Shown: piece after piece, positions 19,781 through 36,937 of the stretch
Position numbering within the stretch: position 1 is the stretch's first letter
Layout: the number at the start of each line of letters is the position of its first letter
NCBI GenBank assembly: GCA_050251055.1
Contig: JBFWNL010000006.1
Coordinates: 1-64,000, forward strand
Source of the DNA: Bacteriovoracia bacterium
GTDB taxonomy: Bacteria > Bdellovibrionota > UBA1018 > JBFWNL01
Direction of reading: 5' to 3'
Length of the DNA: 64,000 nt
Program-made: the position numbers and the translations under genes
Notes under the pieces: generated by a model
Told to the model about the DNA's origin: nothing
Seen by the model: the letters and a program-made list of their open reading frames with translations, nothing else
Databases searched by the model: none

Positions 19781-19807
19781 TGACAGACACCTGTCAGGAT
19801 TCTGACA
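19781..19807. promoter_or_regulatory. Phased operator/UAS TGACA-N6-TGTCA-N6-TGACA
   Basis: Three pentamers at exactly 11-bp spacing (19781, 19792, 19803). Confidence 0.6.
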
Positions 19808-22625: not shown

Positions 22626-22877
22626 ATGAGCCGTATCGACTTTATGGAAATATTGAAAGAACAGTACGCCGAAGAGATCCACACGGTCTACGTGGAATCC
22701 AAACGCGGCAAGACCGTGGATTTGCCCGAATTCACGATCAAACTTTTGAAACTCTTCAAATGCGCCAAGGCGGAGGGGATGTCGGAGCAGGATTATTTCG
22801 ACCTCGTCCAGGCGGAAGCGCCGCAGGTCTGGTCGCAAATCAGCTCCCAATTCACCACGGATCGCCGGGCGGCCTGA
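22626..22877 (+). CDS. Small hypothetical protein
   Basis: 83 aa, fills the gap between two minus-strand genes, AAAGGGG upstream. Confidence 0.7.
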   Translation: MSRIDFMEILKEQYAEEIHTVYVESKRGKTVDLPEFTIKLLKLFKCAKAEGMSEQDYFDLVQAEAPQVWSQISSQFTTDRRAA

Positions 22878-22880
22878 ACT

Positions 22881-24155
22881 TTACTCGCGGCCGGGCAATG
22901 CCGCCGCGGATTCAATCATCCCCCGCACGCTGACTTGTCCCGTGTAGTTTCCGAAAAGAACCCGTCCGGGTTGAGCGGCCCAACCACGCGCGGCATCCCA
23001 CGTTTCTAGTAACGCGTGATTGTAAATTGGGATCGCCGCTGGCCAGCGGAAAAGGCGGGCTTCGAGGACTTCGATCGCCGTCCCGAAAAGTCTAGAAGTT
23101 TCTTGGGTGGCGATCTGTACCAGGGTTTCGTCGGATTCCTGAAGGGCTCGGGGATCACCGGTGCCTCCGATCATCACGGTATACGAGGCGTGCGCATCGT
23201 CGATGACCCGATCTGGAAACGCGCTCGAGTTAAAAAGCACGCCTAAAATTCGATACCCTTCTCCCCGGGGGATCAGCACCCCGACGCCTCTCGGGTGCGC
23301 GCGATCTTTTCGAACAATCAAGGTAAGGCTGATCAAAGGCGCGTACTGGACTCGTTTGAGAGCGGCGACGATCGCCCCCGAGTCTGGGAACCTCAAGAGT
23401 GGGATCGTGGCGGCCGGCGCCGAGGTGCAGATCGCCACGTTATGCAGTGGGATCGCGGATAAGGCGCTATGGGCGAGCTGGATTTTGACCCCGGAGGCTT
23501 CTAGTGCGGCTTGGAGCTTTTTTATAATTTCTCCCATTCCGCCGCGAGGAGTAACCATGGGCCCGCGAGCCGGGCGTGAGGATCTGGGTTTGGTTAACTG
23601 CGCGCGCGCGAGGCTACGCCCGGGAGCGACGCTCAGCCGTGGAAAAGCCGCCGCTTGCGCTAACTCGTCGGGGGTACAGGCGTAGATTCCCGTCACCATT
23701 GGACCGACCAGATACCGTAAGGCCTTCTCACCCAGATGGCGGCGGGTCCACTCCGCGAGGGTGGGGCCTCCGACGGAGTCGGTCATGGGAGCGGTGTGGG
23801 ATAGGGCGCGTATTAACAGGCCACCCATTTCCAGAACGCCCAAAGGGAACTTGCGCAGCCGGCCTTCGCGCAGGATGTAGCGAGCGGTGGCTTCGGGATG
23901 GACTCCCGTGAAATTCACTCCGATCTCGCGCATGAACTCCATAACAGACGGTGGCGCGAGCAGGGAGTGCGCGGCCTGCTCGGCGATTCCGGTCGCCAGC
24001 GAATCCGTTTGGATCATGCCGCCGAGACGGTCGGATTTCTCGATGAGCGTGGCTTGGTAACCCCGTTTTTGCGCGTAGAAGGCAAACAGCATCCCCGCGA
24101 TCCCGCCGCCGATCACCGTGACTTCACGTTGCCGGGGATCGAGGGTGCCGATCAC
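22881..24155 (-). CDS. hemG: HemY-type protoporphyrinogen oxidase
   Basis: VIGGGIAG FAD motif, RLGGMIQT, GIYA, GVLFNS, AIPIY; last gene of hem operon. Confidence 0.88.
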   Translation of the reverse strand: MIGTLDPRQREVTVIGGGIAGMLFAFYAQKRGYQATLIEKSDRLGGMIQTDSLATGIAEQAAHSLLAPPSVMEFMREIGVNFTGVHPEATARYILREGRLRKFPLGVLEMGGLLIRALSHTAPMTDSVGGPTLAEWTRRHLGEKALRYLVGPMVTGIYACTPDELAQAAAFPRLSVAPGRSLARAQLTKPRSSRPARGPMVTPRGGMGEIIKKLQAALEASGVKIQLAHSALSAIPLHNVAICTSAPAATIPLLRFPDSGAIVAALKRVQYAPLISLTLIVRKDRAHPRGVGVLIPRGEGYRILGVLFNSSAFPDRVIDDAHASYTVMIGGTGDPRALQESDETLVQIATQETSRLFGTAIEVLEARLFRWPAAIPIYNHALLETWDAARGWAAQPGRVLFGNYTGQVSVRGMIESAAALPGRE

Positions 24156-25105
24156 AGCGCCGGTTCCGCCAGCGCCTTGAGCACTTCGGCGAACTCAGGA
24201 TCGTCATTGAACGAGCGCGAGCGACTGTAGTGAGTAATTCCTGCATTTTTCGCATGATCGGCGAAGAGCATGTCGATCTCATAAAGCGTCTCAATGTGAT
24301 CGCTCACGAAGCTGATCGGGACGATTACTAGGTTGCGGCAACCCTCGGCGGCCAGCCGGTCAATCTCGTTTTCCGTGTAAGGCTGTAGCCAAGGTAATCG
24401 ACCGTTGCGCGATTGAAACGCGAGCGACCACGGAGCCCGTAGTCCTTTGCTTACAGCTTGCACGGTTTTATTCACCTCTTCCGGGTAAGGATCGCCGCGT
24501 TGGATAATCTTCATGGGGAGAGAGTGTGCGGAAAAGAGCACGTGTACGGGCTCGGGGTGGCGCGAGGCCTCCGCCACCGCTTCGTCGACGGTCCGGCGCA
24601 AAAGCGCGATATAAGGAGGGAAGTCAGGCCAACTCGTGATCGTGGTTCGCTTCGGCCGCCAGTCCATCTTTTTGAGCTGGGTCTCCACTTCCTCCAGGCA
24701 AGTCTTGGAAGTCGTGGTCGAGTACTGAGGGAAGAGCGGGAGCAGGATTAAATGCTCGATCCCGGCGGCGCGCAACTCGTCCAGGGTTTGGCGGATCGGC
24801 GGGCGCCAGACCCGCATGCCGACGCTCACTGGCACGTCTCTTCCGGTTTTTTTTAGTGCGTGCCGCAGACCATCGACTTGTAGACGCGTCCAACGCAGCT
24901 GTGGGGATCCGCCTCCGATCAGAGCGTAGCTCCGGCGCGAGGAAGGCCCTTTGATCCGTGAAATCAAGTAAGCCAGGATCTGGCGAACGGGCGCGGGGAT
25001 TCCCACCAGCACGTTCGGGTCGGAGAAAAGATTATAGAGGAACGGCACGACTTCGTCGTTCGTGTCGGGTCCGCCGAAATTCAGGAGGAGAATGCCGGTT
25101 TTCAT
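24152..25105 (-). CDS. hemH: Ferrochelatase
   Basis: LLNFGGP, IGGGSP, LFPQYS, FSAHSLP, PWLQP, FVSDHIETLYEID. Confidence 0.95.
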   Translation of the reverse strand: MKTGILLLNFGGPDTNDEVVPFLYNLFSDPNVLVGIPAPVRQILAYLISRIKGPSSRRSYALIGGGSPQLRWTRLQVDGLRHALKKTGRDVPVSVGMRVWRPPIRQTLDELRAAGIEHLILLPLFPQYSTTTSKTCLEEVETQLKKMDWRPKRTTITSWPDFPPYIALLRRTVDEAVAEASRHPEPVHVLFSAHSLPMKIIQRGDPYPEEVNKTVQAVSKGLRAPWSLAFQSRNGRLPWLQPYTENEIDRLAAEGCRNLVIVPISFVSDHIETLYEIDMLFADHAKNAGITHYSRSRSFNDDPEFAEVLKALAEPAL

Positions 25106-26484
25106 ATCGTTTTGCTAAAAAGTTGCGTGCCTGGGGCCTTGGCCGTCAGGCGTGCGTCGAAGGCCATGCAGATGTTGCGTAAATAAGGCCGGCCGCTTTC
25201 GGTGATTCGGCACGTTTTTCCGTCAATCTCCACCAAGCCATCGCTCAAGAGCTCGGCGAGTCTTCCGGGAACGCTTTCGAGATAGGGGGTGTACTGGGCG
25301 GACTGCTCCCATCGGGTCTCGAAGCGGGTCATGAGGTTGAGGATGTGGCGACGGATCACGAGGTCTTCTTCAGTGAGTAGATGTCCGCGAATCAGCGGCA
25401 CCTCGCCGGACTCCACGCGCTGGGTGTACTTTTCCAATAATTTTTCGTTTTGGGCGAAGGCGGTTGTGGAATCGCCGATGGCCGAAACGCCCAGGCCGAT
25501 CAAGGGCGAAACCTGCTGGGGAATGTAGCCCATGAAGTTACGGTGGAGCCGGCCGCTTTGAGTGGCCTGCCAGAGGGCGTCGCTCTCTAGCGCGAAGTGA
25601 TCCATGCCGATCTCGCGGTAGCCCGCCTCCTCGAGCATCGCGCGCCCCAGCTCGTAAAGCGCGCGCTTCTCATCGCCGTCGGGCAGGTCGGCCTCCGTGA
25701 ACCGGCGTTGGCTCGCCTTGATCCATGGTACGTGCGCGTAGGCGTAAAACGCGATGCGGTCGGGGCGTAGGCGGATGACGGTTTCGATCGTGTTGCGGAC
25801 GCTGTCACGCGTCTGGAACGGTAATCCGTAGATCAAGTCATAATTGATGCTTTGGAAGCCCTTTTCGCGTGCCTCTTTTGTGAGGGCTTCCACTTGTTCC
25901 ACGCTCTGCACGCGGTTCACGATCTCTTGCACCTTGGGATCAAAGTCCTGGATGCCCAAGCTTAAACGGGTAAAGCCGAGCCCGCTGAGTACCCGTAGGT
26001 GGTCTGGATTCGTGACCCGGGGGTCGGCCTCGATGGAGAATTCCGAGTGCGTCGCGCGTTCGCAGGTGGCGAAGAGGCCTTCGAGCAACTCTTTCAACTC
26101 TTCCGGAGTATAAAAGGTGGGCGTTCCCCCGCCGAGGTGCAGCTCCGCCAACGGGTAAGTCGAAATTCCCAGACGCTCGCGGTAAGTTGCCCATTCCTTC
26201 AAAAGCGTCTTCGTATAGGGCTGGCTGACCCCGTGATTGCGCGTGATGCGGGTGTTGCAGCCGCAGTACGTGCAGAGCCGCTCGCAGAACGGGATGTGGA
26301 GGTAAAGCGCGCCGCCTTGCTTTTCCTGCTTGGCCGTCGACAGGGCACTGGAAAGATGCCCGATCCACTGCTCCGGCGTGGGATTCGTCTCCCAGTAAGG
26401 CACCGTGGGGTAGCTAGTGTAGCGAGGACCCGGGACATTATACTTCTTCAGGAGCGGCGTGGCCGCGTGAGAAGGTCGGTTCAT
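25102..26484 (-). CDS. hemN: Oxygen-independent coproporphyrinogen III oxidase
   Basis: GPRYTSYPT, HIPFCERLCTYCGC radical SAM motif, GGGTP, HRNFMGY; ATG 26484 overlaps hemE stop. Confidence 0.95.
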   Translation of the reverse strand: MNRPSHAATPLLKKYNVPGPRYTSYPTVPYWETNPTPEQWIGHLSSALSTAKQEKQGGALYLHIPFCERLCTYCGCNTRITRNHGVSQPYTKTLLKEWATYRERLGISTYPLAELHLGGGTPTFYTPEELKELLEGLFATCERATHSEFSIEADPRVTNPDHLRVLSGLGFTRLSLGIQDFDPKVQEIVNRVQSVEQVEALTKEAREKGFQSINYDLIYGLPFQTRDSVRNTIETVIRLRPDRIAFYAYAHVPWIKASQRRFTEADLPDGDEKRALYELGRAMLEEAGYREIGMDHFALESDALWQATQSGRLHRNFMGYIPQQVSPLIGLGVSAIGDSTTAFAQNEKLLEKYTQRVESGEVPLIRGHLLTEEDLVIRRHILNLMTRFETRWEQSAQYTPYLESVPGRLAELLSDGLVEIDGKTCRITESGRPYLRNICMAFDARLTAKAPGTQLFSKTI

Positions 26485-27545
26485 GCGAAAACCTCCCGTA
26501 CGAGCTGCACGAAGCGGCGTACGTTCTCTTCCGGGGTCTTTGGGAGCACTCCGTGCCCTAGGCCGCAGATCCAACCGGCGCGGGCGGACGCCGGTAGCTT
26601 CGCCACCTGGGCGAAGACCGCGCGCAGTTTTGTTTCAAGTTCCGGCCAAGGCAGGAACATCCACTCGGGATCCACGTTGCCTTGGATCGCCCAGTGCTGG
26701 CCCCAGTCCCGGAGCGTAGCCGCCAAATCATTGTGCCAATCAATTCCGAGGCAATGGATGGGTAGGCCCACGAGGTGTCGCCAGTAATCGGCATTCGTAC
26801 CCTTGGAATAGTAAGTGACGAGGGTGTCGGGAGCGCCGCGCTTGAAGGCTTCGAGTACCTTTTGGTTCGCCGGCACGACGAGCTTGCCGTAAAGGTCGGG
26901 GCTGATTTCGCCGCCGCAGGTGTCCAATAGCGCCACGCAATCCGCCCCCGCCCGGGCTTGCAGAAGCATGTTTTCCACGAGCAACGGAATGAGTTTTTCC
27001 AGGAATGGCTCCCAGCGACCATCGGTTAAGGCCGCGCGAGCATCGGAAAGATCCCCCCGGTGGGAGCCGCTAACGGCGTAGAAAAAAAGCGTGAGCGGAC
27101 CGCCGACGAATCCCAGTAGTCCCTTATGCGCCGGCAGGGTCCGGCGAATGAGCTTCATGGCGTCGCCCTGGAACTGCAGGTGTGAGACCAGCTCCGGGCC
27201 TGATCGCAGGCGGCCCACGTCCGCCGCGGATTTGATGTGCCAGCCCAGTTTCGGTCCGGCGTCGCCATATTCGAGTCCCGTTCCCATGACTTCCAACGGA
27301 AAGAGCAAATCAGAAAAGAGAATCGCGGCGTCGAAATCGAAATCGCGGATGGGGCCCATCGTCGTTTCGCAGGCGACTTCGGGCAGCTTGCATAGCTCCA
27401 TGAACGAATAGCGCTTACGGAGATTCTGATAATGCGCATGATAGCGCCCGGCCTGGCGCATGAGCCAGACGGGCGGCGTGCCAGTGGTGTTTTTCTTTTG
27501 GGCCGCGAGGCGGAACAGGTTTTCGGATGGTTTTGGATTGGTCAT
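26481..27545 (-). CDS. hemE: Uroporphyrinogen decarboxylase
   Basis: PVWLMRQAGRY, AILFSDLL, QGNVDP, LGHGVLP. Confidence 0.95.
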   Translation of the reverse strand: MTNPKPSENLFRLAAQKKNTTGTPPVWLMRQAGRYHAHYQNLRKRYSFMELCKLPEVACETTMGPIRDFDFDAAILFSDLLFPLEVMGTGLEYGDAGPKLGWHIKSAADVGRLRSGPELVSHLQFQGDAMKLIRRTLPAHKGLLGFVGGPLTLFFYAVSGSHRGDLSDARAALTDGRWEPFLEKLIPLLVENMLLQARAGADCVALLDTCGGEISPDLYGKLVVPANQKVLEAFKRGAPDTLVTYYSKGTNADYWRHLVGLPIHCLGIDWHNDLAATLRDWGQHWAIQGNVDPEWMFLPWPELETKLRAVFAQVAKLPASARAGWICGLGHGVLPKTPEENVRRFVQLVREVFA

Positions 27546-28237
27546 ATCAGTTGGTATCCCACGCCGCGCACGCTCTTGATGGCGACCGGATTTTCCGGAT
27601 CAATCTCCACGATTTTTCGCAGTTTCAAGACGAAATTATCCACCGTGCGCGAGGTCGGGAACTCGTTCTCCGACCAGACGAAGTTTAGAATTTCGTCGCG
27701 GCTTACGACTTTTCCACGGCGTTCGGCTAGGAACTTCAGCAGCGCGCACTCCTTGTGGGTCAAGGGATGGGTTTCCTTGCCCACGTGGGCTTCGAATTTC
27801 GAAAAATGGATGGTGGCGCGGCCGATGACCGCGGCTTCTTCGGTGCCGGGCAGGTCGGAGAAAAATTTCGCGCGCTTGAGGGCGTTTTGTATGCGTAGTA
27901 ACAGCTCCTTGAAATGGAAGGGCTTGACGACGTAGTCTTCCGCGCCGAGCTCGAGTCCGCGGATGCGATCGTCCGGGTTGGCGAACGCCGTGAGAAAGAT
28001 GATGGCGGTTCCCTTGCTTTGCTGACGGACGATTTTCGCGAGATCGAAGCCGGATCCGTCGGGCAGGCCCACGTCGAGCAGCGCCAGCTGGAACTTGCGC
28101 TGGCTTACCTCGTGATGGGCTTCGGCAAAGGTTTTGGCCCAAGCGATGTCGAAGCCTTCCTGTTTCAGGCGCTCTACCAGCGTCGAGCCCACGTTTTTTT
28201 CGTCTTCCACGATGAGCAGTTTCACGGCATCAGCCAT
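27542..28237 (-). CDS. OmpR-family response regulator (HemR-like)
   Basis: LLIVEDE, LLDVGLPDGSG, DYVVKPF, winged helix RTVDNFVLKLR...VRGVGY. Confidence 0.92.
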   Translation of the reverse strand: MADAVKLLIVEDEKNVGSTLVERLKQEGFDIAWAKTFAEAHHEVSQRKFQLALLDVGLPDGSGFDLAKIVRQQSKGTAIIFLTAFANPDDRIRGLELGAEDYVVKPFHFKELLLRIQNALKRAKFFSDLPGTEEAAVIGRATIHFSKFEAHVGKETHPLTHKECALLKFLAERRGKVVSRDEILNFVWSENEFPTSRTVDNFVLKLRKIVEIDPENPVAIKSVRGVGYQLI

Positions 28238-29195
28238 GGCTTTCTCCGTTGTGCAGTGAAATGTCGGCTTGAAACCCGCGGTGGCCGGCGGCATCGGCGC
28301 GCGTGTTCGCCCGCCGCCGTTCGAATGAGATCTTTCCCTTCATCTTTTCAACGAGATTCTTGCTGAGGTAAAGACCCACCCCCGCGCCCTGGGATTGGGC
28401 GCCTTTGTGGAAAAGCTTCCCGAGCTCGGCGCCTTCGGCGCCGATGCCTACGCCATCGTCCTCAAAATGAATTTTCACGAGGCCGTTGGATTGTTTCACC
28501 CGGATTTGTACCAATACTGGCGAGCGACCGGAGTGGCGGATGGAATTCTCCACCAAGTTTTTGAGCACGATCTGCAGCGCATTCGGATCGGCGTAGAGAT
28601 GGCAATCGTCCACGTCCACTTCCAGCCGGATGGAGTCAGTGTACATCTCACGCCAGCCCTGAACGAGACGGTCGAGCCAAGGTCTCACGCGAAAGACTTG
28701 ATTGAATAGGGCGCCACCGCCCTCCACGCGCGCGAGCTCGAGCGTGCGCTCCACCTGGGACTCCAGGCGGCTCGTGTCCTCGAGTAGACGCCGGGCAAGA
28801 TTGCGCTGGGGGCTGTCGGCCGCCACCCCATCGGCGATGGATTCGGATTGCAGGCGGATGCTGGTCAGCGGGGTTTTTAGTTCATGGGTGACGGAAGCGA
28901 AAAACGCCTCGAGCGAACGCGAGCGCCGCACATCGCGCCAGTAGTACCAAATCAATCCGCCCGATACGAGCAGGAGGAGCGCGATGAAGGTGGCCGACTC
29001 CCAAAAGAGCATTCGCTGGGTTTTCGCCCACTGGTGATTGGCAATATCGGTGGCGATGCCGGCCAAGGCTTCGAGCTCGGCGATACGCTGGGCTTGGCGC
29101 CACATCACGTAACCCCACCACGCCGAAAGCACGCATAGGATCCCCAGCCACGCGAGCTGCAGGATAAACATGGTGCGGAGGCGAGGTTGCTTCAT
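28230..29195 (-). CDS. Sensor histidine kinase (HemK-like)
   Basis: Two TM helices, THELKTPL H-box, NLVENS N-box, DDGVG, GAGVGL. Confidence 0.92.
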   Translation of the reverse strand: MKQPRLRTMFILQLAWLGILCVLSAWWGYVMWRQAQRIAELEALAGIATDIANHQWAKTQRMLFWESATFIALLLLVSGGLIWYYWRDVRRSRSLEAFFASVTHELKTPLTSIRLQSESIADGVAADSPQRNLARRLLEDTSRLESQVERTLELARVEGGGALFNQVFRVRPWLDRLVQGWREMYTDSIRLEVDVDDCHLYADPNALQIVLKNLVENSIRHSGRSPVLVQIRVKQSNGLVKIHFEDDGVGIGAEGAELGKLFHKGAQSQGAGVGLYLSKNLVEKMKGKISFERRRANTRADAAGHRGFQADISLHNGESHG

Positions 29196-29203
29196 GTTTT
29201 GCC

Positions 29204-30499
29204 TTAGGCGCCCTTCTTTAGGTAGTTTTCGAGGGTAGCGAGGAACTGATCCACGTCGCGGGGGGCGTGGGGGGTCGCTAAAAACCCGACTTCGTAACCG
29301 CTCGGGGCTAGGTAGATTCCCTGGTCCAGGAAGTAGTGAAAGAGCTTCGCGAAGCGTTCTTTCTGCGCGCCGGGAATGGCTTCGATCGCGCGGACGGTGT
29401 CGCCTTGACGGGCGGCGACCATCCAGAACATCGAGCTCTCCGATTGCGCCCGCAGCTCGGCGCCGTAACGAGCGGCCAAGTTGTTGATGCCTTTCTCCAG
29501 GCTCTCGGTCAGCGAGCGCAGGCGGGCATAGGGGTTCTCGCGCTTTAGCTTCTTCAACGTGGCGAGCCCCGCGCACATGGCGACGGGGTTCGCGCTCAGG
29601 GTACCCGCCTGGTAGACGGCGCCCACGGGGGCCACGTGATCCATCAGGTCCGCCCGGCCGGCGTAAGCTCCGACGGGAAATCCTCCGCCGATGATTTTAC
29701 CGTAAGTCACCAGGTCCGGCACGATGCCGGTCACTTCGGCCATGCCGCCGAGAGCCGTGCGGAACCCGGTGATGACTTCGTCGAAGATCAAAAGCGCCCC
29801 GTTTTGCTTGCAGAGTTCGGCGAGCTTTTTCAAAAAGCCCGGGGTCTGCGGCAGTAGCCCATTATTGGCGGGAATAGGCTCCACGATCACGGCCGCGAGT
29901 TCTTTCCCGTGCTGGGCGAAAATCTTCTCTAAGGCGACGGGTTGGTTCAACGGCGCGACGAGGGTGTCTTTGGCGCAGCCTTCGGTGACGCCCGCGCTGT
30001 CGGGACTCGCCATTTCGGCCAAGCCCGAGCCCGCGCGCACCAGCATGGAGTCGGCGTGACCGTGATAGCACCCGTCGAACTTGAGAATCTTACTACGGCC
30101 GGTAGCGCCGCGGGCCACGCGTAGGGCCGACATCACGGCCTCGGTTCCGGAGTTCACGAAGCGGACTTTTTTTACGTGCGGTAGGTGCTGGGTCATCCAT
30201 TCCGCTAGTTCGAGCGAGTAGGGTTCGGCCGCGCCATATGTCCAGCCCCGGTTGATGGCCGAATGTACGGCCTCGGCGACATCGGGGTCCTGGTGGCCCA
30301 GGATGAGCGGGCCCCACGATAAGCAGTAATCGGTGTAAGTCTTTCCTTCCACGTCGGTGATCTGCACGCCCTTGGCGCCTTGGATGAAACGGGGGTGTCC
30401 GCCGACGCCGCGAAAGCCGCGCACGGGCGAATGCACGCCGCCTGGGGAGACCGCTTTGGCGCGTTCGAATAACTTCAAGGAGTCCATTTTTGTCGTCAT
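29204..30499 (-). CDS. hemL: Glutamate-1-semialdehyde 2,1-aminomutase
   Basis: PGGVHSPVR, SWGPLILGH, NSGTEA, FDEVITGFR, GKIIGGG, QAGTLS. Confidence 0.96.
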   Translation of the reverse strand: MTTKMDSLKLFERAKAVSPGGVHSPVRGFRGVGGHPRFIQGAKGVQITDVEGKTYTDYCLSWGPLILGHQDPDVAEAVHSAINRGWTYGAAEPYSLELAEWMTQHLPHVKKVRFVNSGTEAVMSALRVARGATGRSKILKFDGCYHGHADSMLVRAGSGLAEMASPDSAGVTEGCAKDTLVAPLNQPVALEKIFAQHGKELAAVIVEPIPANNGLLPQTPGFLKKLAELCKQNGALLIFDEVITGFRTALGGMAEVTGIVPDLVTYGKIIGGGFPVGAYAGRADLMDHVAPVGAVYQAGTLSANPVAMCAGLATLKKLKRENPYARLRSLTESLEKGINNLAARYGAELRAQSESSMFWMVAARQGDTVRAIEAIPGAQKERFAKLFHYFLDQGIYLAPSGYEVGFLATPHAPRDVDQFLATLENYLKKGA

Positions 30500-30504
30500 T
30501 TTAT

Positions 30505-31515
30505 CTATTCCTCTAACCATTTTTTCGCTTCGCGCGCGCCGTAGGTGATGATCATCTGCGCGCCGGCACGCCGGAACGCCGTCCACGCTTCCACGTGCGC
30601 GGCCGGCCCCGTCATTAGGCCTTGCTTTGCCAGTAGCTCGATCGCGGCATACTCTCCGCTCACTTCGTAAACCGCCCACGGCAGTCGAATCTCCTGCGAC
30701 AGCCTTGCCAGCATATCGAGATACGGTAACCCCGGTTTCACCATCAAAATATCGGCGCCCTCCTGGGCGTCCCGCCAGGAGCTGGCCACCGCATCCGTCG
30801 GGCGTCCCGGATCGATTTGATAAGTCGCGCGGTCTTTTAGCCCGCCGCCTTTCGGTGCCGAGTCCGCGGCCACGCGGAAGGGTCCGTAAAACTTCGAATG
30901 AAACTTGGCTGAATAGCTCATGACGAGGGTTCGTTCGAGGCCGGCGCCGTCAAGCGCGCCGCGGATCGCGCCCACGCGGCCATCCATCATGTCGCTCGGG
31001 GCGACGCAATCGGCGCCCGCCTGCGCGTACTCCAGAGCCTGGCGTGCGAGCTCTTCCACGGTCGCGGAATTCTCCAGGTGATCGCCCTCGGCGTTCAGGA
31101 TGCCGCATTGCCCGTGGGTCGTGGCTGAGCACAGGCACACGTCCACGCCGATCCAAATGTCTTTTCCGAAACGCTGGCGCAGGGCCGCGATCTGGGTGGC
31201 GGTGAACGAAAAATCAAACTCCTCCGGGCGCTTGTCCCTGGGTACGCCGAAAACGAGGAACTTCGACACGCCTTGCTCGAGGTCGGCCTCCACCTGTTTG
31301 AGTAAGCTGTTCGGCGTCTCGCGGTTCACGCCAGTAAGCCCCGGCACGGATTCGGGCGATTTCAGGCCGTCGACGACGAAGCAGGGTTGAATCATCTGCT
31401 TTACGGTGGGTTGGTGTTCGCGCGCGAGCTCCCGAATCAACGGAGACTGCCGAAGTCGGCGCAGACTCATCGGGAATCGGTTCGGATTACCAGGATTACT
31501 CTTTGCATCACTCAT
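30505..31515 (-). CDS. hemB: Porphobilinogen synthase
   Basis: DVCLCSATTHGQCG zinc ligands, APSDMMDGR, SYSAKF, YGPFR, MVKP, YEVSGEY. Confidence 0.95.
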   Translation of the reverse strand: MSDAKSNPGNPNRFPMSLRRLRQSPLIRELAREHQPTVKQMIQPCFVVDGLKSPESVPGLTGVNRETPNSLLKQVEADLEQGVSKFLVFGVPRDKRPEEFDFSFTATQIAALRQRFGKDIWIGVDVCLCSATTHGQCGILNAEGDHLENSATVEELARQALEYAQAGADCVAPSDMMDGRVGAIRGALDGAGLERTLVMSYSAKFHSKFYGPFRVAADSAPKGGGLKDRATYQIDPGRPTDAVASSWRDAQEGADILMVKPGLPYLDMLARLSQEIRLPWAVYEVSGEYAAIELLAKQGLMTGPAAHVEAWTAFRRAGAQMIITYGAREAKKWLEE

Positions 31516-33088
31516 GGCTGGACACCCACTTTCTCCATTCTTCCACCGAGGGAAACACCAGGGCGGGCACCGACGCGTCGGCCAAGGTCTCGGCGGTTTG
31601 TCCGGGGCCGCAGGCGTGGACGGCGTTCTTCGCGCATTTGCTTCGTAGAGCCCTGAACTGCGAGCCGCTACCCCAAAACACATGCTTCGCTTGGCCGAGG
31701 GACGCGATCGCCGCGTCGTTCGCGTGCGTGGTATCCACGTGGTAGGTCGGGATCACGTGGGAGCCTGGCCAAGCCGTACCCCAGCTGTCGGCCGCGTCGT
31801 CGTGCGTGAGGACCACCCAATGCGAGGCCGCGGGCATCGACAACACCGGCTGCTCGAGTAGCGGGCGCAGGAAATCAAAGCCCATTTGCTCGGCCGAGCC
31901 ATTGACCCAGTAACCCAGCTCCGCGAGGCGAAACCAGCTCGGGGTGCCAGAGGTAAAAAAGAAAAGTTCTTCGGGATGTGGCCAAGTAACCGGCCATGGC
32001 TGCGGCATCGCGCGCGAGTGGGCGACGAAAACCGCACCGGCTTTCCAGCCGGTGTCCCAATGTCGAAGATCCGTTAGGCGGTTTTCGCCCATGGACTTGG
32101 CTCGCGCCTGCGTGCCGTCCCAGCTCACCCCCCCAGCCTCCCGCGCGGGTGGCGCCGGCCAGCGGACTTCGTCGCAGGGCTCTCCGTTGGATTTTTTCCC
32201 TTGGATATAAAGGATGTTCCCGAGCCGCGCGTGCGCCACTGCGGAAGCGCCGAAGCGCTGGTGGCAGCCACCGCCGTATTGCGCGAGTACCGCGCGTTCG
32301 CGACTTACTTCCTGCTCGGTGGGGACGTGATGAATCTTCCGCAGCATCGCCCAGGTGGCGTCGTCGTCCGCCCGGCATTCGATGGCGAGCGCGCCTTGCG
32401 CCGGCGCGGTCGGATTCTCCTTCAGCGGCAGCACCATCCAGCGCAAGCCGCGCAGTAATTCGGAAAGCTCCCGGCGCCCGGCCTCGTCCGCCCAGAGGCG
32501 CGCCAATCCCGCGAGCGCGAGCACCACGCCGTCCAGCGCGCGCGGCGAGCTAGACGGTTCACGCACGCGCCGTAACCGGGTGTTGACGTTGCCGCGGATC
32601 TCTTCGAAAGCTAAAAGCGGCGGCGTCCCCGTCGATCCACCTGTGCTGAAACGAGGAAGCGCCTGGCGTAAAAACGGCGGGATATTCTCCAATCGCCGCG
32701 GGGAAGAAGTGCCGATCTGCAGGGTTTCGCCGGCGCGGAGCTTTTCCATGACCTCGGGGCGGAACAAAACGATGTCGCGCGAGTTTTCGCGCTGGGGGAT
32801 CGCGCCCAGCCGAATCGCCGTCGGACGCTCCAAGCTTAGGTCCTTCATGGAGTGCACGGTGAAGTCGACCTCGCCGCGAGTAAGTGCCTGGTCGAGTTCG
32901 GCCACGAAGAACTCCTTGCCCTCAACCTGGCGCAACGGCACGTCGACGATGCGGTCGCCTTGCGTCTCAATGCCCACGAGTTCCACGGAGGTGGCGGGGT
33001 TTGCCCGCTCGATTTCTCTCGCCACCCAGGCGCTTTGCGCCATCGCCAGGAGCGAGCGGCGGGTACCGAGTTTCAACTTTTTCGTCAT
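31508..33088 (-). CDS. hemC: Hydroxymethylbilane synthase with C-terminal HemD-like extension
   Basis: GTRRSLLA, VHSMKDL, GTSSPRR, IRGNVNTRL, GGGCH; about 200 extra C-terminal residues. Confidence 0.88.
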   Translation of the reverse strand: MTKKLKLGTRRSLLAMAQSAWVAREIERANPATSVELVGIETQGDRIVDVPLRQVEGKEFFVAELDQALTRGEVDFTVHSMKDLSLERPTAIRLGAIPQRENSRDIVLFRPEVMEKLRAGETLQIGTSSPRRLENIPPFLRQALPRFSTGGSTGTPPLLAFEEIRGNVNTRLRRVREPSSSPRALDGVVLALAGLARLWADEAGRRELSELLRGLRWMVLPLKENPTAPAQGALAIECRADDDATWAMLRKIHHVPTEQEVSRERAVLAQYGGGCHQRFGASAVAHARLGNILYIQGKKSNGEPCDEVRWPAPPAREAGGVSWDGTQARAKSMGENRLTDLRHWDTGWKAGAVFVAHSRAMPQPWPVTWPHPEELFFFTSGTPSWFRLAELGYWVNGSAEQMGFDFLRPLLEQPVLSMPAASHWVVLTHDDAADSWGTAWPGSHVIPTYHVDTTHANDAAIASLGQAKHVFWGSGSQFRALRSKCAKNAVHACGPGQTAETLADASVPALVFPSVEEWRKWVSSHE

Positions 33089-33112
33089 TTCTTTACTGTC
33101 CTGAGTATCCAG

Positions 33113-34078
33113 TTATCCAAACGCGGCCAGGTCTTCCCAGCCGTGGGGAAGATTAGCCGAATCGCCGGCCGCCAAGAAGCGCAATTTCGCGCGTTCGGCG
33201 CAGGCGGCGAGCGCCTTTTGGACGCGCTGGGACTTCGCCGAGTGCAGTGAGTTTTGCAGGGCAAACAGATCGTCGATCGAAAGGAAGCGGGTGACGGGCG
33301 ACCAAACCGCTTTCTCGGCCGCGGCGCAGCCAAGGTGGAGCACCGTGCCCATGAACTCGCCCAGGCCTTCGGCGCGCGCCTGGTCGGCCTGCGCGTCATG
33401 AGGAATGCAGAGCAGGGCATGGCCGCTTTGCTCCCAGCCGTCCTTTTCGTCTTCCACGACTGAAACCCTGGCTTGGGGCTGGAGGCTCTTTACTTTCTCC
33501 GCCAGCGCGAAGGCTTTATCCAAGCTGCGATTCCAGATCACGAGCTCGTGCTCCAGTAGATAGGGCACGACCGAATACGCGATTTTTCCCGCGCCTAGAA
33601 TAAAAAGTTTGCCCTCGCTCGGCGCGGGCAACGCTTTGCGCACGAGCGTGCCGTAGGATCCTCCGCCCAGGCCTTGCAGATGAGTAGAACGAATCTCCTT
33701 CGTGTCTTCGAATAGCCGTTGCATGCGCGGGCGCAGATCGGTCAAAACGACGTGTGATTGGCAGGGAACCGGGCGGGTGTGTATTTTCTCGAATTTCGCC
33801 CAGGCTTCCTTGATTTGGCCGAAGATATCGGTTTCGCCGATGACGGCGCTTTCGAGTCCGCACGCGATGCGCAGCAAGAAATCGTAGGCGGCTTCGCCCT
33901 CGAAGAGATCGAAGCCTTCGAAACCCTCCGCGAGCCTGCGTGCGAGCAAAGGGTCGTTGCCCAGCCAGAAGTAACGCTGGCACGTATCGACGAAAAAAAG
34001 CCCGTGCGTGCCTAAATTTAAAGGACGTGCTTCTTGATTCTTGCGATAATGGAGAAGCACGAACTTGGAATCAGCCAT
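33113..34078 (-). CDS. hemA: Glutamyl-tRNA reductase (short form)
   Basis: DTCQR catalytic Cys, CGLESAVIGETDIFGQIK, ILGAGKIA, WNRS; first gene of hem operon. Confidence 0.85.
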   Translation of the reverse strand: MADSKFVLLHYRKNQEARPLNLGTHGLFFVDTCQRYFWLGNDPLLARRLAEGFEGFDLFEGEAAYDFLLRIACGLESAVIGETDIFGQIKEAWAKFEKIHTRPVPCQSHVVLTDLRPRMQRLFEDTKEIRSTHLQGLGGGSYGTLVRKALPAPSEGKLFILGAGKIAYSVVPYLLEHELVIWNRSLDKAFALAEKVKSLQPQARVSVVEDEKDGWEQSGHALLCIPHDAQADQARAEGLGEFMGTVLHLGCAAAEKAVWSPVTRFLSIDDLFALQNSLHSAKSQRVQKALAACAERAKLRFLAAGDSANLPHGWEDLAAFG

Positions 34079-34084
34079 GCTCTT

Positions 34085-34125
34085 AGTGTACGTAATCCAG
34101 GTTTTCATTTGTCACCCAAAAGTCA
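34085..34125 (-). promoter_or_regulatory. hemA promoter with HemR-type box
   Basis: Minus strand TGACT-TTTGGG-TGACA (34125-34110) at the -35 position; TACACT -10 at 34090-34085, 6 nt before ATG. Confidence 0.65.
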
Positions 34126-34132
34126 CCGCGCC

Positions 34133-34876
34133 ATGAATGACAACATATTGAAATTAAAAAGAATTTTAGCTTACACCGACGGCTCCGCCCTCGGAAATCC
34201 CGGTCCCGGGGGGTGGGGCGTGCTTTGCGTGTTGCCGACGGGCGAGGTGATCGAGCGCGGGGGATCTGAGCGCATCACCACGAACAACCGGATGGAGCTA
34301 AAGGCGGCGATCGAGACGTTGATCGCGGTGGCCGAAGTTCCCGGTCCGGTGGAGATCCTCACCGATTCAAAATACCTGATTGAGGGTTCCACGCGCTGGA
34401 TTTTTTCGTGGCGTAGGCGCGGGTGGAAAACGATGGAAGGCCAGCCGGTGGCTAACCGGGAATTGTGGGAGCAGCTGGGCGAGCTGATCGCCGGCCGCAC
34501 CGCGGGGCTCACCTGGACGCACGTCGATGCCCACCGCGGCGTGCCCGGCAACGAGCGCGTGGATCAAATCGCGCAAGGCTTCGCGGCGGACAATCACGTG
34601 GATCTCTATGCGGGACCGCTCGAGAACTATTCGATCACCCTCGATGACTTATTGAACACCGATCCCCGTCTGCTCAAAAAAACCACGGGCGGATCGAAGA
34701 ACAAAGGACCGGGTTTCTCGTACCTGAGCCTGGTCGATGGTAAGGTCATGCGCCATGCGACGTGGCCCGAATGCGAAGCGCGCGTGAAGGGACGCTCGGG
34801 GGCCAAGTACAAAAAGGCGATGTCGCCGGCCGACGAACAGGAAATCCTGAAGGCCTGGGGCGTCTCGCTTGCCTGA
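34133..34876 (+). CDS. rnhA: Ribonuclease HI with C-terminal hybrid-binding (viroplasmin-like) domain
   Basis: YTDGSALGNPGPGGWG, TTNNRMEL, TDSKY, NRELW, GNERVD; tail TWPECEARVKGRSGAKYKK. Confidence 0.9.
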   Translation: MNDNILKLKRILAYTDGSALGNPGPGGWGVLCVLPTGEVIERGGSERITTNNRMELKAAIETLIAVAEVPGPVEILTDSKYLIEGSTRWIFSWRRRGWKTMEGQPVANRELWEQLGELIAGRTAGLTWTHVDAHRGVPGNERVDQIAQGFAADNHVDLYAGPLENYSITLDDLLNTDPRLLKKTTGGSKNKGPGFSYLSLVDGKVMRHATWPECEARVKGRSGAKYKKAMSPADEQEILKAWGVSLA

Positions 34877-35891: not shown

Positions 35892-36347
35892 ATGCTTCAA
35901 ACGGGTTTGAATCCGGCCACGCCAGTTTGGGTGGACCCTGGGAAGGGTGTCCTTCGCTCCGCCGTGGAGTTCCTTGCTTCGTCATTTCCTCGTTTCAACT
36001 GGGTGGGCGTCTACGTTTTGAAGGGTGACGTTCTGGAACTCGGACCGTTCGTGGGCGAGCCCTCCCCGCACACCCGGATCCAGGTGGGCGTGGGTGTCTG
36101 CGGGACGGCCGTGGCCGAAAACGCGGATCAGAACGTGCCAGATGTTCGGGAGCGGAAGAACTACCTCGCTTGTAGCCTGACGACGCGGTCGGAGCTCGTG
36201 GTGCTCGTCCGGGACCGGGCGGGAAAAATTTTAGGTCAGATCGATATCGACAGCTACACGGTCAACGCTTTCGGTTCCCGCGAGGAATCGGTCGTGCGTG
36301 AAGTCGCCCAATACCTGGGCGGAGTTTGGCCCGAATCATTGGCGTAG
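35892..36347 (+). CDS. msrC: GAF-domain free methionine-R-sulfoxide reductase-like protein
   Basis: NWVGVY, LGPFVG, GVGVCGTA, YLACS, SELVV, IDIDS. Confidence 0.8.
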   Translation: MLQTGLNPATPVWVDPGKGVLRSAVEFLASSFPRFNWVGVYVLKGDVLELGPFVGEPSPHTRIQVGVGVCGTAVAENADQNVPDVRERKNYLACSLTTRSELVVLVRDRAGKILGQIDIDSYTVNAFGSREESVVREVAQYLGGVWPESLA

Positions 36348-36358
36348 AGGGGATTAAG

Positions 36359-36937
36359 ATGGAGAGAGTACGGAAGTCGAAAGCGAAGCCCACGTTGGAA
36401 TCTATCTTCTTCGTGACCCCCGAACAGCGTCTCCTGCGCTTCCTCGTGTCGGAGTCCACGAGCTCCTTCACGCCGCGCGTGCTTTCCTCCAAGCTCAAGG
36501 GCGTGCGTGGTCTGGGTGGCGCCGACGGCATCTCCCGCATCTTGAAGCTTTTGCAGGAAGTCGGCATGGTTTCGTTCGTGAACAACAACCAGGCCGTGAT
36601 GTGCCAGAACGACAGCGTCTACATCCGGGCGCTTAAAACTTTTTCCGCGCTATGCGATCTCGAGGGGTTGCAGCTGCAGCTCGAGCCGCTGTCCACGAAG
36701 GGCGTGCTCTACGGCAGTCGCGCCAATGGTACCTCCCGCACCGATAGCAATTACGATCTCTTCATTGTGACCGACACCCCGGACGAAGTGACCCGGATCG
36801 TGGAAGGCCATCCGCTCGGCAAGCGGCTGGGCCTCGAGACCATGACTCTCGACGATTACCTGCAGATCGAATCGAAGCAGCCTGAGTTCGCCAAGAAGCT
36901 CGCCAAGGGCATCGTCATGTGGGGGTCGAGCTGGTGA
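36359..36937 (+). CDS. Winged-helix + minimal nucleotidyltransferase-domain protein
   Basis: N-terminal HTH-like region, then [22 protein letters not shown], ends GIVMWG; GAGGGG RBS. Confidence 0.78.

Follow-up and report, generated by a model that had tools for sequence, protein, structure and literature searches.

The locus described here raises the question of whether a sensor kinase and a response regulator encoded within a heme-synthesis operon of a Bacteriovoracia bacterium belong to the HemKR two-component system of Leptospira, and, if they do, which site upstream of hemA the regulator may use, what the kinase may sense, and how the same arrangement came to be present in different phyla. 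The window is the whole 64,000-nucleotide stretch of DNA analyzed (assembly GCA_050251055.1, contig JBFWNL010000006.1, positions 1 to 64,000). Its heme operon very probably represents a self-regulating synthesis cassette run by a HemKR orthologue.

Ten genes, all on the minus strand, follow each other in the order hemA-hemC(D)-hemB-hemL-kinase-regulator-hemE-hemN-hemH-hemG (22881..34078). Their junctions range from an 8-nucleotide overlap to a 24-nucleotide gap when the true ATG codons of the kinase and regulator genes are used, and the heme genes with the embedded kinase and regulator form one tightly packed operon, as the first-pass annotation had claimed together with this gene order. The genes are as follows.

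33113..34078, minus strand: hemA, short divergent glutamyl-tRNA reductase of 321 residues with a TCxR motif; Pfam GlutR_N above and TIGR01035 below cut-off; 28% identical to the L. interrogans protein
31508..33088, minus strand: hemC with a C-terminal extension (probable HemD); TIGR00212 above cut-off; full-length match to the bifunctional deaminase/uroporphyrinogen synthase of L. interrogans
30505..31515, minus strand: hemB, porphobilinogen synthase; domain and family profile matches
29204..30505, minus strand: hemL, glutamate-1-semialdehyde aminomutase; domain and family profile matches and HemL trees
28230..29195, minus strand: HemK-type HisKA sensor kinase of 321 residues; two membrane helices, short loop, H104 and T108; conserved W16, W26, W27, M62, and E66
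27542..28237, minus strand: HemR-type OmpR/PhoB response regulator of 231 residues with D55; domain matches and a tree with L. interrogans HemR
26481..27545, minus strand: hemE, uroporphyrinogen decarboxylase; domain and family profile matches
25102..26484, minus strand: hemN, oxygen-independent coproporphyrinogen III oxidase; TIGR00538 above cut-off
24152..25105, minus strand: hemH, ferrochelatase; TIGR00109 above cut-off
22881..24155, minus strand: protoporphyrinogen oxidase (PPO) of the HemY/PPO type, dependent on flavin adenine dinucleotide (FAD), "hemG" in RefSeq Leptospira; TIGR00562 above cut-off

The ten operon proteins are 25 to 57% identical to their L. interrogans counterparts (34% for the kinase, 44% for the regulator), and each of the ten L. 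interrogans proteins finds its best match in the source genome within this operon. Among 72,556 records of a plasmid collection, the best match to the kinase was the kinase on chromosome II of L. interrogans (34% identity, 89% coverage); among homologues with names, those nearest to the kinase and the regulator were proteins of Bdellovibrionota or Oligoflexia. The regulator shared a 22-row clade with L. interrogans HemR, taken as LB015 by its position, at a support of 100/97, and this clade excluded all seven full-length paralogues and the 18 nearest outside regulators used (25 of 61 were listed). A recognition helix, RT(V/I)DNxIxxLR, is common to the regulator and Leptospira HemR. The top PDB match of the receiver domain was 4q7e, which we take to be HemR. 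As judged by these comparisons, kinase and regulator are orthologues of Leptospira HemK and HemR, so that the naming of the pair in the first-pass annotation, and the expected grouping of the regulator with HemR, were both borne out.

The position of the pair between hemL and hemE is also that found in L. interrogans, where the order on chromosome II is hemA-C(D)-B-L-kinase-regulator-E-N-x-G with hemH apart. According to the accessible text of Louvel 2008 (PMC2266917), LB014 and LB015 are located between hemL and hemE, and LB014 complements a kinase mutant of L. biflexa. The Leptospira pair (Hklep/Rrlep; LEPBIa1423/1422 in L. biflexa, LB014/LB015 in L. interrogans) resembles that of the window in two membrane helices, a short loop, the H-box histidine, and a threonine four residues behind it, and a short HemA and a HemC(D) fusion occur on both sides. 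Differences are that hemH is part of the operon here but separate in L. interrogans, and that the pair is encoded apart from the hem genes in L. biflexa but inside the operon here. The same paper mentions the same linkage in Bdellovibrio bacteriovorus, of the same phylum, in one sentence as "data not shown," and its accessible text gives no operator box, tree, or survey; the linkage is therefore less new than the first-pass annotation implied. In the subclade that probably includes Bdellovibrio (a guess), hemB is outside the operon in most genomes but inside here.

With regard to the gene labels of the first-pass annotation, the order stands, "hemG" has to be replaced by an FAD-dependent enzyme of the HemY/PPO type (TIGR00562), and the hemD part of hemC(D) has no Pfam HemD match. 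The extension of HemC, which gave neither a BLAST match to free HemD nor a PDB profile hit, is probably HemD. The HemA of the window is a short divergent form scoring below the NCBIfam cut-off. HemA proteins of this module are generally short (median, 307 residues) and without a match to the dimerization domain, 70 of 94 end with a GWE(D/E) motif, and RefSeq labels the L. interrogans counterpart "hypothetical"; those of the divergent f18, f29, and f33 families described below have about 400 residues or more.

If the regulator is a HemR, an operator should be present upstream of hemA, and the first-pass annotation had claimed a TGACT-N6-TGACA repeat over the −35 position of a probably leaderless promoter. 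Two elements are assigned here.

34110..34125, minus strand: predicted hem-box operator, TGACT-N6-TGACA, at about −47 to −32, with the downstream half over the −35 position
34085..34090, minus strand: −10 element TACACT, 19 nucleotides downstream of the box and 6 nucleotides before the hemA ATG at 34078; the transcript is predicted to be leaderless

Read on the minus strand from 34125 to 34110, the site is TGACT-TTTGGG-TGACA and differs by one mismatch from TGACA-N6-TGACA. Such a one-mismatch match by itself is weak evidence. The genome-wide scan for TGACA-N6-TGACA that the first-pass annotation had proposed yielded no perfect site in the source genome and 28 one-mismatch sites, and six one-mismatch matches were present in the window versus 1.14 expected. 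A matrix derived from 59 distinct boxes of other genomes, however, ranked the site of the window first in the source genome with 15.6 bits, followed by a runner-up with 13.7 bits. The hem-box is accepted as real because of its conservation upstream of hemA and not from the match in the window alone. A box was found upstream of hemA in all 82 related loci with untruncated upstream DNA, being perfect in 62, with one mismatch in 7, and of the form CTACA-N6-TGACA in 13, compared to 13 of 1,640 shuffles and 1 of 82 neighboring windows. These loci, fetched around kinase orthologues with two truncated loci and those without a hemA match left out, came from 29 genomes of the same order, 34 other Bdellovibrionota, 12 metagenome contigs, 5 Acidobacteriota genomes, genome G521, and L. 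interrogans; they are kin, and the counts measure conservation but not independent events. The CTACA-N6-TGACA form replaces the symmetric box in the lineage of family f22 (13 loci), in which the recognition helix, inspected by eye, had no obvious change to match.

A TAnnnT motif is positioned 19 or 20 nucleotides behind the box in 66 of the 82 loci, and a start codon follows 5 to 8 nucleotides behind TAnnnT in 42 of 64, most commonly after 6 nucleotides. The start codon is so near to the −10 element in most loci that a leaderless mRNA is predicted, and the hemA transcript is probably leaderless, in agreement with the earlier claim. In L. interrogans, a perfect box 19 nucleotides before TATAGT precedes hemA and matches the site of the window in position and spacing, the difference being the one mismatch here. 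The hemA ATG at 34078 aligns with the start of L. interrogans HemA; a longer reading frame starting at 34108 was rejected since it would leave the promoter no space. Leaderless transcripts are common in L. interrogans, as stated in the accessible part of PMC5243855, and a search by text terms of the supplements on transcription start sites of this species did not find a hemA start site. The hemA promoter escaped a generic scan for promoters, since only spacers of 16 to 18 nucleotides are permitted there.

The repeat might instead be a look-alike of a sigma-70 −35 element or the site of another factor, with the pair controlling something else. TGACA is indeed the core of TTGACA, and one-mismatch sites are common, as the 28 in the genome demonstrate. 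Both half-sites are conserved, however, and a T precedes the downstream TGACA in only 1 of the 82 loci, which means that this half is not selected as a TTGACA −35 element. The box accompanies the pair across phyla, even ahead of hemE in a permuted operon, and seven hemL loci without the pair (families f16, f19, and f23, with long stretches available) have neither a hem cluster nor a box on the hemL strand. A look-alike is thus very improbable, and the place and sequence claimed for the operator were correct.

How such a box may act can be derived from L. biflexa. As described in the accessible text of PMC11426443, the L. biflexa kinase has a cytoplasmic part that is active by default, TGACA-N6-TGACA is bound by phosphorylated HemR, the proposed activator of hemA, and 5-aminolevulinate (ALA) triggers a dephosphorylation that depends on T102, with ALA itself or a later porphyrin as the possible signal. 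The residues H104 and T108 of the kinase and D55 of the regulator are present in the window proteins. By analogy, the kinase would be on by default and phosphorylate the regulator from H104 to D55; the phosphorylated regulator would bind head to tail to the direct repeat with its 11-bp period, over the −35 position, and activate a weak promoter with 19 to 20 nucleotides between box and −10 element. The output would be a leaderless transcript from hemA to hemG that includes the kinase and regulator genes themselves. An accumulation of ALA or a later tetrapyrrole would turn the kinase into a phosphatase using T108, and heme synthesis would fall. This would be a negative feedback as in L. biflexa, acting probably on this operon alone, because neither a heme oxygenase nor a second strong box was found.

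Since the box overlaps the −35 position, the regulator could alternatively be mainly a repressor, which blocks RNA polymerase in its unphosphorylated or phosphorylated form. In the accessible text of PMC11426443, HemR represses hmuO in L. biflexa, and a double knockout grows without heme while the single knockouts did not. The same source reports phosphorylated HemR as a hemA activator and a decrease of hemA with ALA, and the fixed distance of 19 to 20 nucleotides (66 of 82 loci) leaves no good −35 element at 17 nucleotides, which suits an activated promoter. Repression as the main mode is therefore improbable. The self-regulating, activated cassette is preferred, and several observations have to be set against it. 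The heme oxygenase profile PF01126 found no match in the source genome, which is 93.5% complete, and no second strong hem-box was found there by the matrix scan, so that the wider regulon of Leptospira, with hmuO, exbB1/D1, and a TonB receptor, does not appear to be mirrored and, as a difference from Leptospira, control may be limited to the operon. In L. biflexa, loss of both genes did not significantly change hemA (PMC11426443, accessible text); this indicates that simple activation is incomplete even in Leptospira.

What is sensed should be visible in the kinase. A model of the protein displays two long helices and no periplasmic domain, with a loop of about 30 residues, and a Foldseek search with it returned generic kinase cores only. 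Among 155 kinases, W26 (99%), W27 (99%), M62 (98%), and E66 (100%) are conserved as strongly as the catalytic histidine, T108 is present in 97%, and no residue of the variable loop exceeds 79%. The methionine and the glutamate are located 42 and 38 residues before the phosphorylated histidine in 149 of the 155 kinases. The WW and M-x3-E motifs also occur in the nine kinases of divergent type and in distantly related ones with long loops, and they are retained while the loop length ranges from about 20 to about 85 residues. The residues that detect the signal may thus be W26, W27, M62, and E66 on the outer face of the membrane helices and not those of the variable loop, a proposal that falls somewhat short of an even chance.

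In Louvel 2008 (PMC2266917, accessible text), residues F31 to S62 of the L. biflexa kinase were replaced, complementation was seen in a growth assay, the only assay used, and the loop was concluded not to be the sensor. By spacing from H98, and using the sequences of saprophyte relatives, this exchange spans M56 and E60, which match M62 and E66; the downstream primer given there encodes the residues directly after a conserved EGS, which fits M56 and E60 lying in the replaced stretch. Since the signal is now known to switch HemKR off, complementation would be expected from a kinase blind to it as well. More tentatively still, HemK may be the type member of minimal membrane tetrapyrrole sensors occurring across phyla, with a WW/M-x3-E pocket and the methionine as a possible ligand of the heme iron; pathway and circuit of Leptospira would have come as one Bdellovibrionota cassette, and the loop-swap mutant of 2008 would be signal-blind and stuck on, which would explain the restored growth. 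A precedent for such a site is HssS of Staphylococcus aureus, which senses heme in a pocket at the boundary between membrane and outer face according to the accessible text of PMC11237747. The likeness, a HisKA kinase with a membrane-boundary sensing pocket, is an analogy, and no orthology is claimed. HssS has an extracellular domain of about 110 residues and uses Arg and Phe residues, whereas the loop of the window kinase has about 30 residues; HssS is switched on by heme and drives HrtBA efflux, and HemK, which drives synthesis, is instead switched off. With a short loop and a biosynthesis operon as target, the window system has neither the large extracellular sensor domain nor the control of HrtBA efflux that characterize HssRS.

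The first-pass annotation had also suggested a prey-derived signal, meaning that the kinase would sense heme or ALA released from prey. Many Bdellovibrionota are predators. External ALA does switch HemK in L. biflexa (PMC11426443, accessible text). The same sensor residues are found in Leptospira, however, and the same system in Acidobacteriota. Within the class of the source genome, 53 genomes contained the kinase together with hemL and 16 yielded neither, without exception on either side, although kinship and contig gaps mean that these are not independent events; this co-occurrence ties the kinase to synthesis rather than to uptake. A prey-derived signal is quite improbable and was left unsupported. 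The 16 genomes with neither gene are 88 to 97% complete and are possibly heme auxotrophs or have assembly gaps.

A kinase profile was used to follow the distribution of the system. It matched, with one match per genome, 259 of 401 genomes of its own phylum (Bdellovibrionota, by the names of homologues), a lower bound because families f18, f29, f31, and f33 scored below the cut-off. Matches were found in 6 of 301 genomes from the phylum to which a Terriglobales genome belongs (Acidobacteriota) and in 11 of 121 from the class represented by a Pyrinomonadaceae genome. Of 201 genomes sharing the phylum of one labeled Myxococcota, 1 matched, and it had the operon and a perfect box. The kinase was not found in the phyla of genomes labeled Thermodesulfobacteriota (201 sampled), Nitrospirota (101), Planctomycetota (151), and Gemmatimonadetes (121). 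In these phylum searches the top 5 to 23 candidates per genome were scored at E values of ≤1e−42 to ≤1e−45, so that divergent members were missed. One such divergent, deep-branching type, formed by f18, f29, f31, and f33, possesses kinase, regulator, and box in all nine loci fetched. Conservation of operon, regulator, and box across phyla, as claimed initially, is thus supported by loci of Bdellovibrionota, Leptospira, and Acidobacteriota. In the literature, only papers on Leptospira and the one sentence on Bdellovibrio were found; the accessible portions of PMC7318608, of PMC13402209, and of the bioRxiv version are silent on other phyla, and Morero 2014 may mention more.

Some loci deviate from the common layout. 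Distant relatives with long loops of up to about 85 residues adjoin hem genes in L261 (704-12508) and in seven further loci. L261 contains the permuted operon hemE-N-H-G-A-C-D-L-kinase-regulator-B with a perfect box 19 nucleotides before TATAAT, ahead of hemE. In L042 and L335 (genome G027), the kinase gene is relocated between hemH and hemG, while regulator and box stay with hemA-N. A Planctomycetota metagenome-assembled genome (L068, 9815-12770) encodes a related regulator and a loopless kinase, followed by a triple TGACA-like repeat before a fatty acid desaturase-like gene, and a desaturase gene is directly upstream of hemA in L201; the wider kinase/regulator family may control membrane lipids. 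A profile scan with a mixed kinase alignment collected at least 80 loci with weak kinases (at most 34% identical), which served as a source of outgroups only.

How the cassette reached these phyla was deduced from trees. In a quick HemL tree rooted on other phyla, all 32 module HemL proteins formed one clade (99 in the Shimodaira-Hasegawa-like approximate likelihood ratio test [SH-aLRT]), the f18 and f29/f31/f33 types branched first, and Leptospira joined one Bdellovibrionota subclade, as did the acidobacterial module HemL proteins, apart from ordinary acidobacterial HemL. A careful 25-row HemL tree agreed (99/98, and 100/99 for the module HemL clade), and the approximately unbiased (AU) test, from which Acidobacteriota and G521 were left out, rejected a clade of Bdellovibrionota HemL alone (p-AU, 0.0006, with one Leptospira operon). 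Leptospira grouped with one Bdellovibrionota subclade in all five single-gene FastTree trees (those of HemE, HemC, kinase, and regulator among them), and a 200-row kinase tree, in which some two dozen rows formed a clade of the Leptospira type, gave the same grouping. The lateral transfer claimed by the first-pass annotation is supported by kinase, regulator, and Hem-enzyme trees in which Leptospira joins a Bdellovibrionota subclade; on these sequences, transfer of the whole block is well supported, and a direction from Bdellovibrionota to Leptospirales is likely.

Alternatively, no such transfer occurred, and both lineages obtained the cassette from an unsampled common donor, or it moved in the reverse direction. 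Box-bearing distant relatives in metagenome contigs would be in agreement with this, and transfers inside Bdellovibrionota blur the tree. On the other hand, with other phyla as root, the two deeper Bdellovibrionota lineages f18 and f29/f31/f33, both having operon and box, diverge before Leptospira, and the frequency in Bdellovibrionota (259 of 401) is by far the highest of the phyla searched. These points render another donor or the reverse direction rather unlikely. The cassette thus seems to be old in Bdellovibrionota and probably reached the Leptospira lineage and some Acidobacteriota as one block. Against this history speak the sampling of Leptospira, with one operon in the Hem-enzyme trees in addition to named kinases from many species, and the fact that the group for the AU test was defined after the FastTree trees had been seen. 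Family f13 and genome G217 carry the cassette type of another subclade, which indicates movement within Bdellovibrionota, so that the donor is not fixed.

A few features surround the operon. The RNase HI gene (rnhA, 34133-34876, plus strand) is divergent, starting 54 nucleotides from the hemA ATG and 7 nucleotides past the box, so that the operator and the rnhA promoter must overlap. Of 64 related loci, 20 have an RNase H gene no more than 1.5 kb upstream of hemA, and a co-regulation with the hem operon is possible. TGACA-N6-TGAAA at 34138 sits in the coding start of rnhA and was dismissed as chance. The triple repeat TGACA-N6-TGTCA-N6-TGACA at 19781-19807, before a pyrroline-5-carboxylate dehydrogenase gene, was rejected as a regulon member because it was absent in all seven orthologue loci (from 10 genomes, 3 without a match; one locus with only 61 nucleotides upstream); it is possibly the site of another regulator. 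A small unannotated reading frame at about 22627-22877 (plus strand) converges on the operon end, with its stop codon 3 nucleotides from that of hemG. At 36326-36937 (plus strand), a protein with a weak nucleotidyltransferase domain is encoded between genes for a GAF-domain protein and an isoleucyl-tRNA synthetase-like protein; no toxin partner was seen.

To understand the meaning of this locus, it must be considered that HemKR has been studied only in Leptospira, where signal and sensing site are open questions according to the accessible text of PMC11426443. As a member of a common family, the locus is not unusual; what it adds is the promoter geometry, the lineage that probably was the donor, and a sensing site that can be tested. 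The comparison yields four candidate sensing residues and grounds to re-test the existing loop-swap mutant under ALA, and a defined design of operator and promoter is extended by it to most of a phylum that offers culturable, harmless models. Borrelia and Treponema pallidum lack heme synthesis (PMC11426443, accessible text), and a cassette transferred from Bdellovibrionota would offer an origin for heme synthesis in Leptospira.

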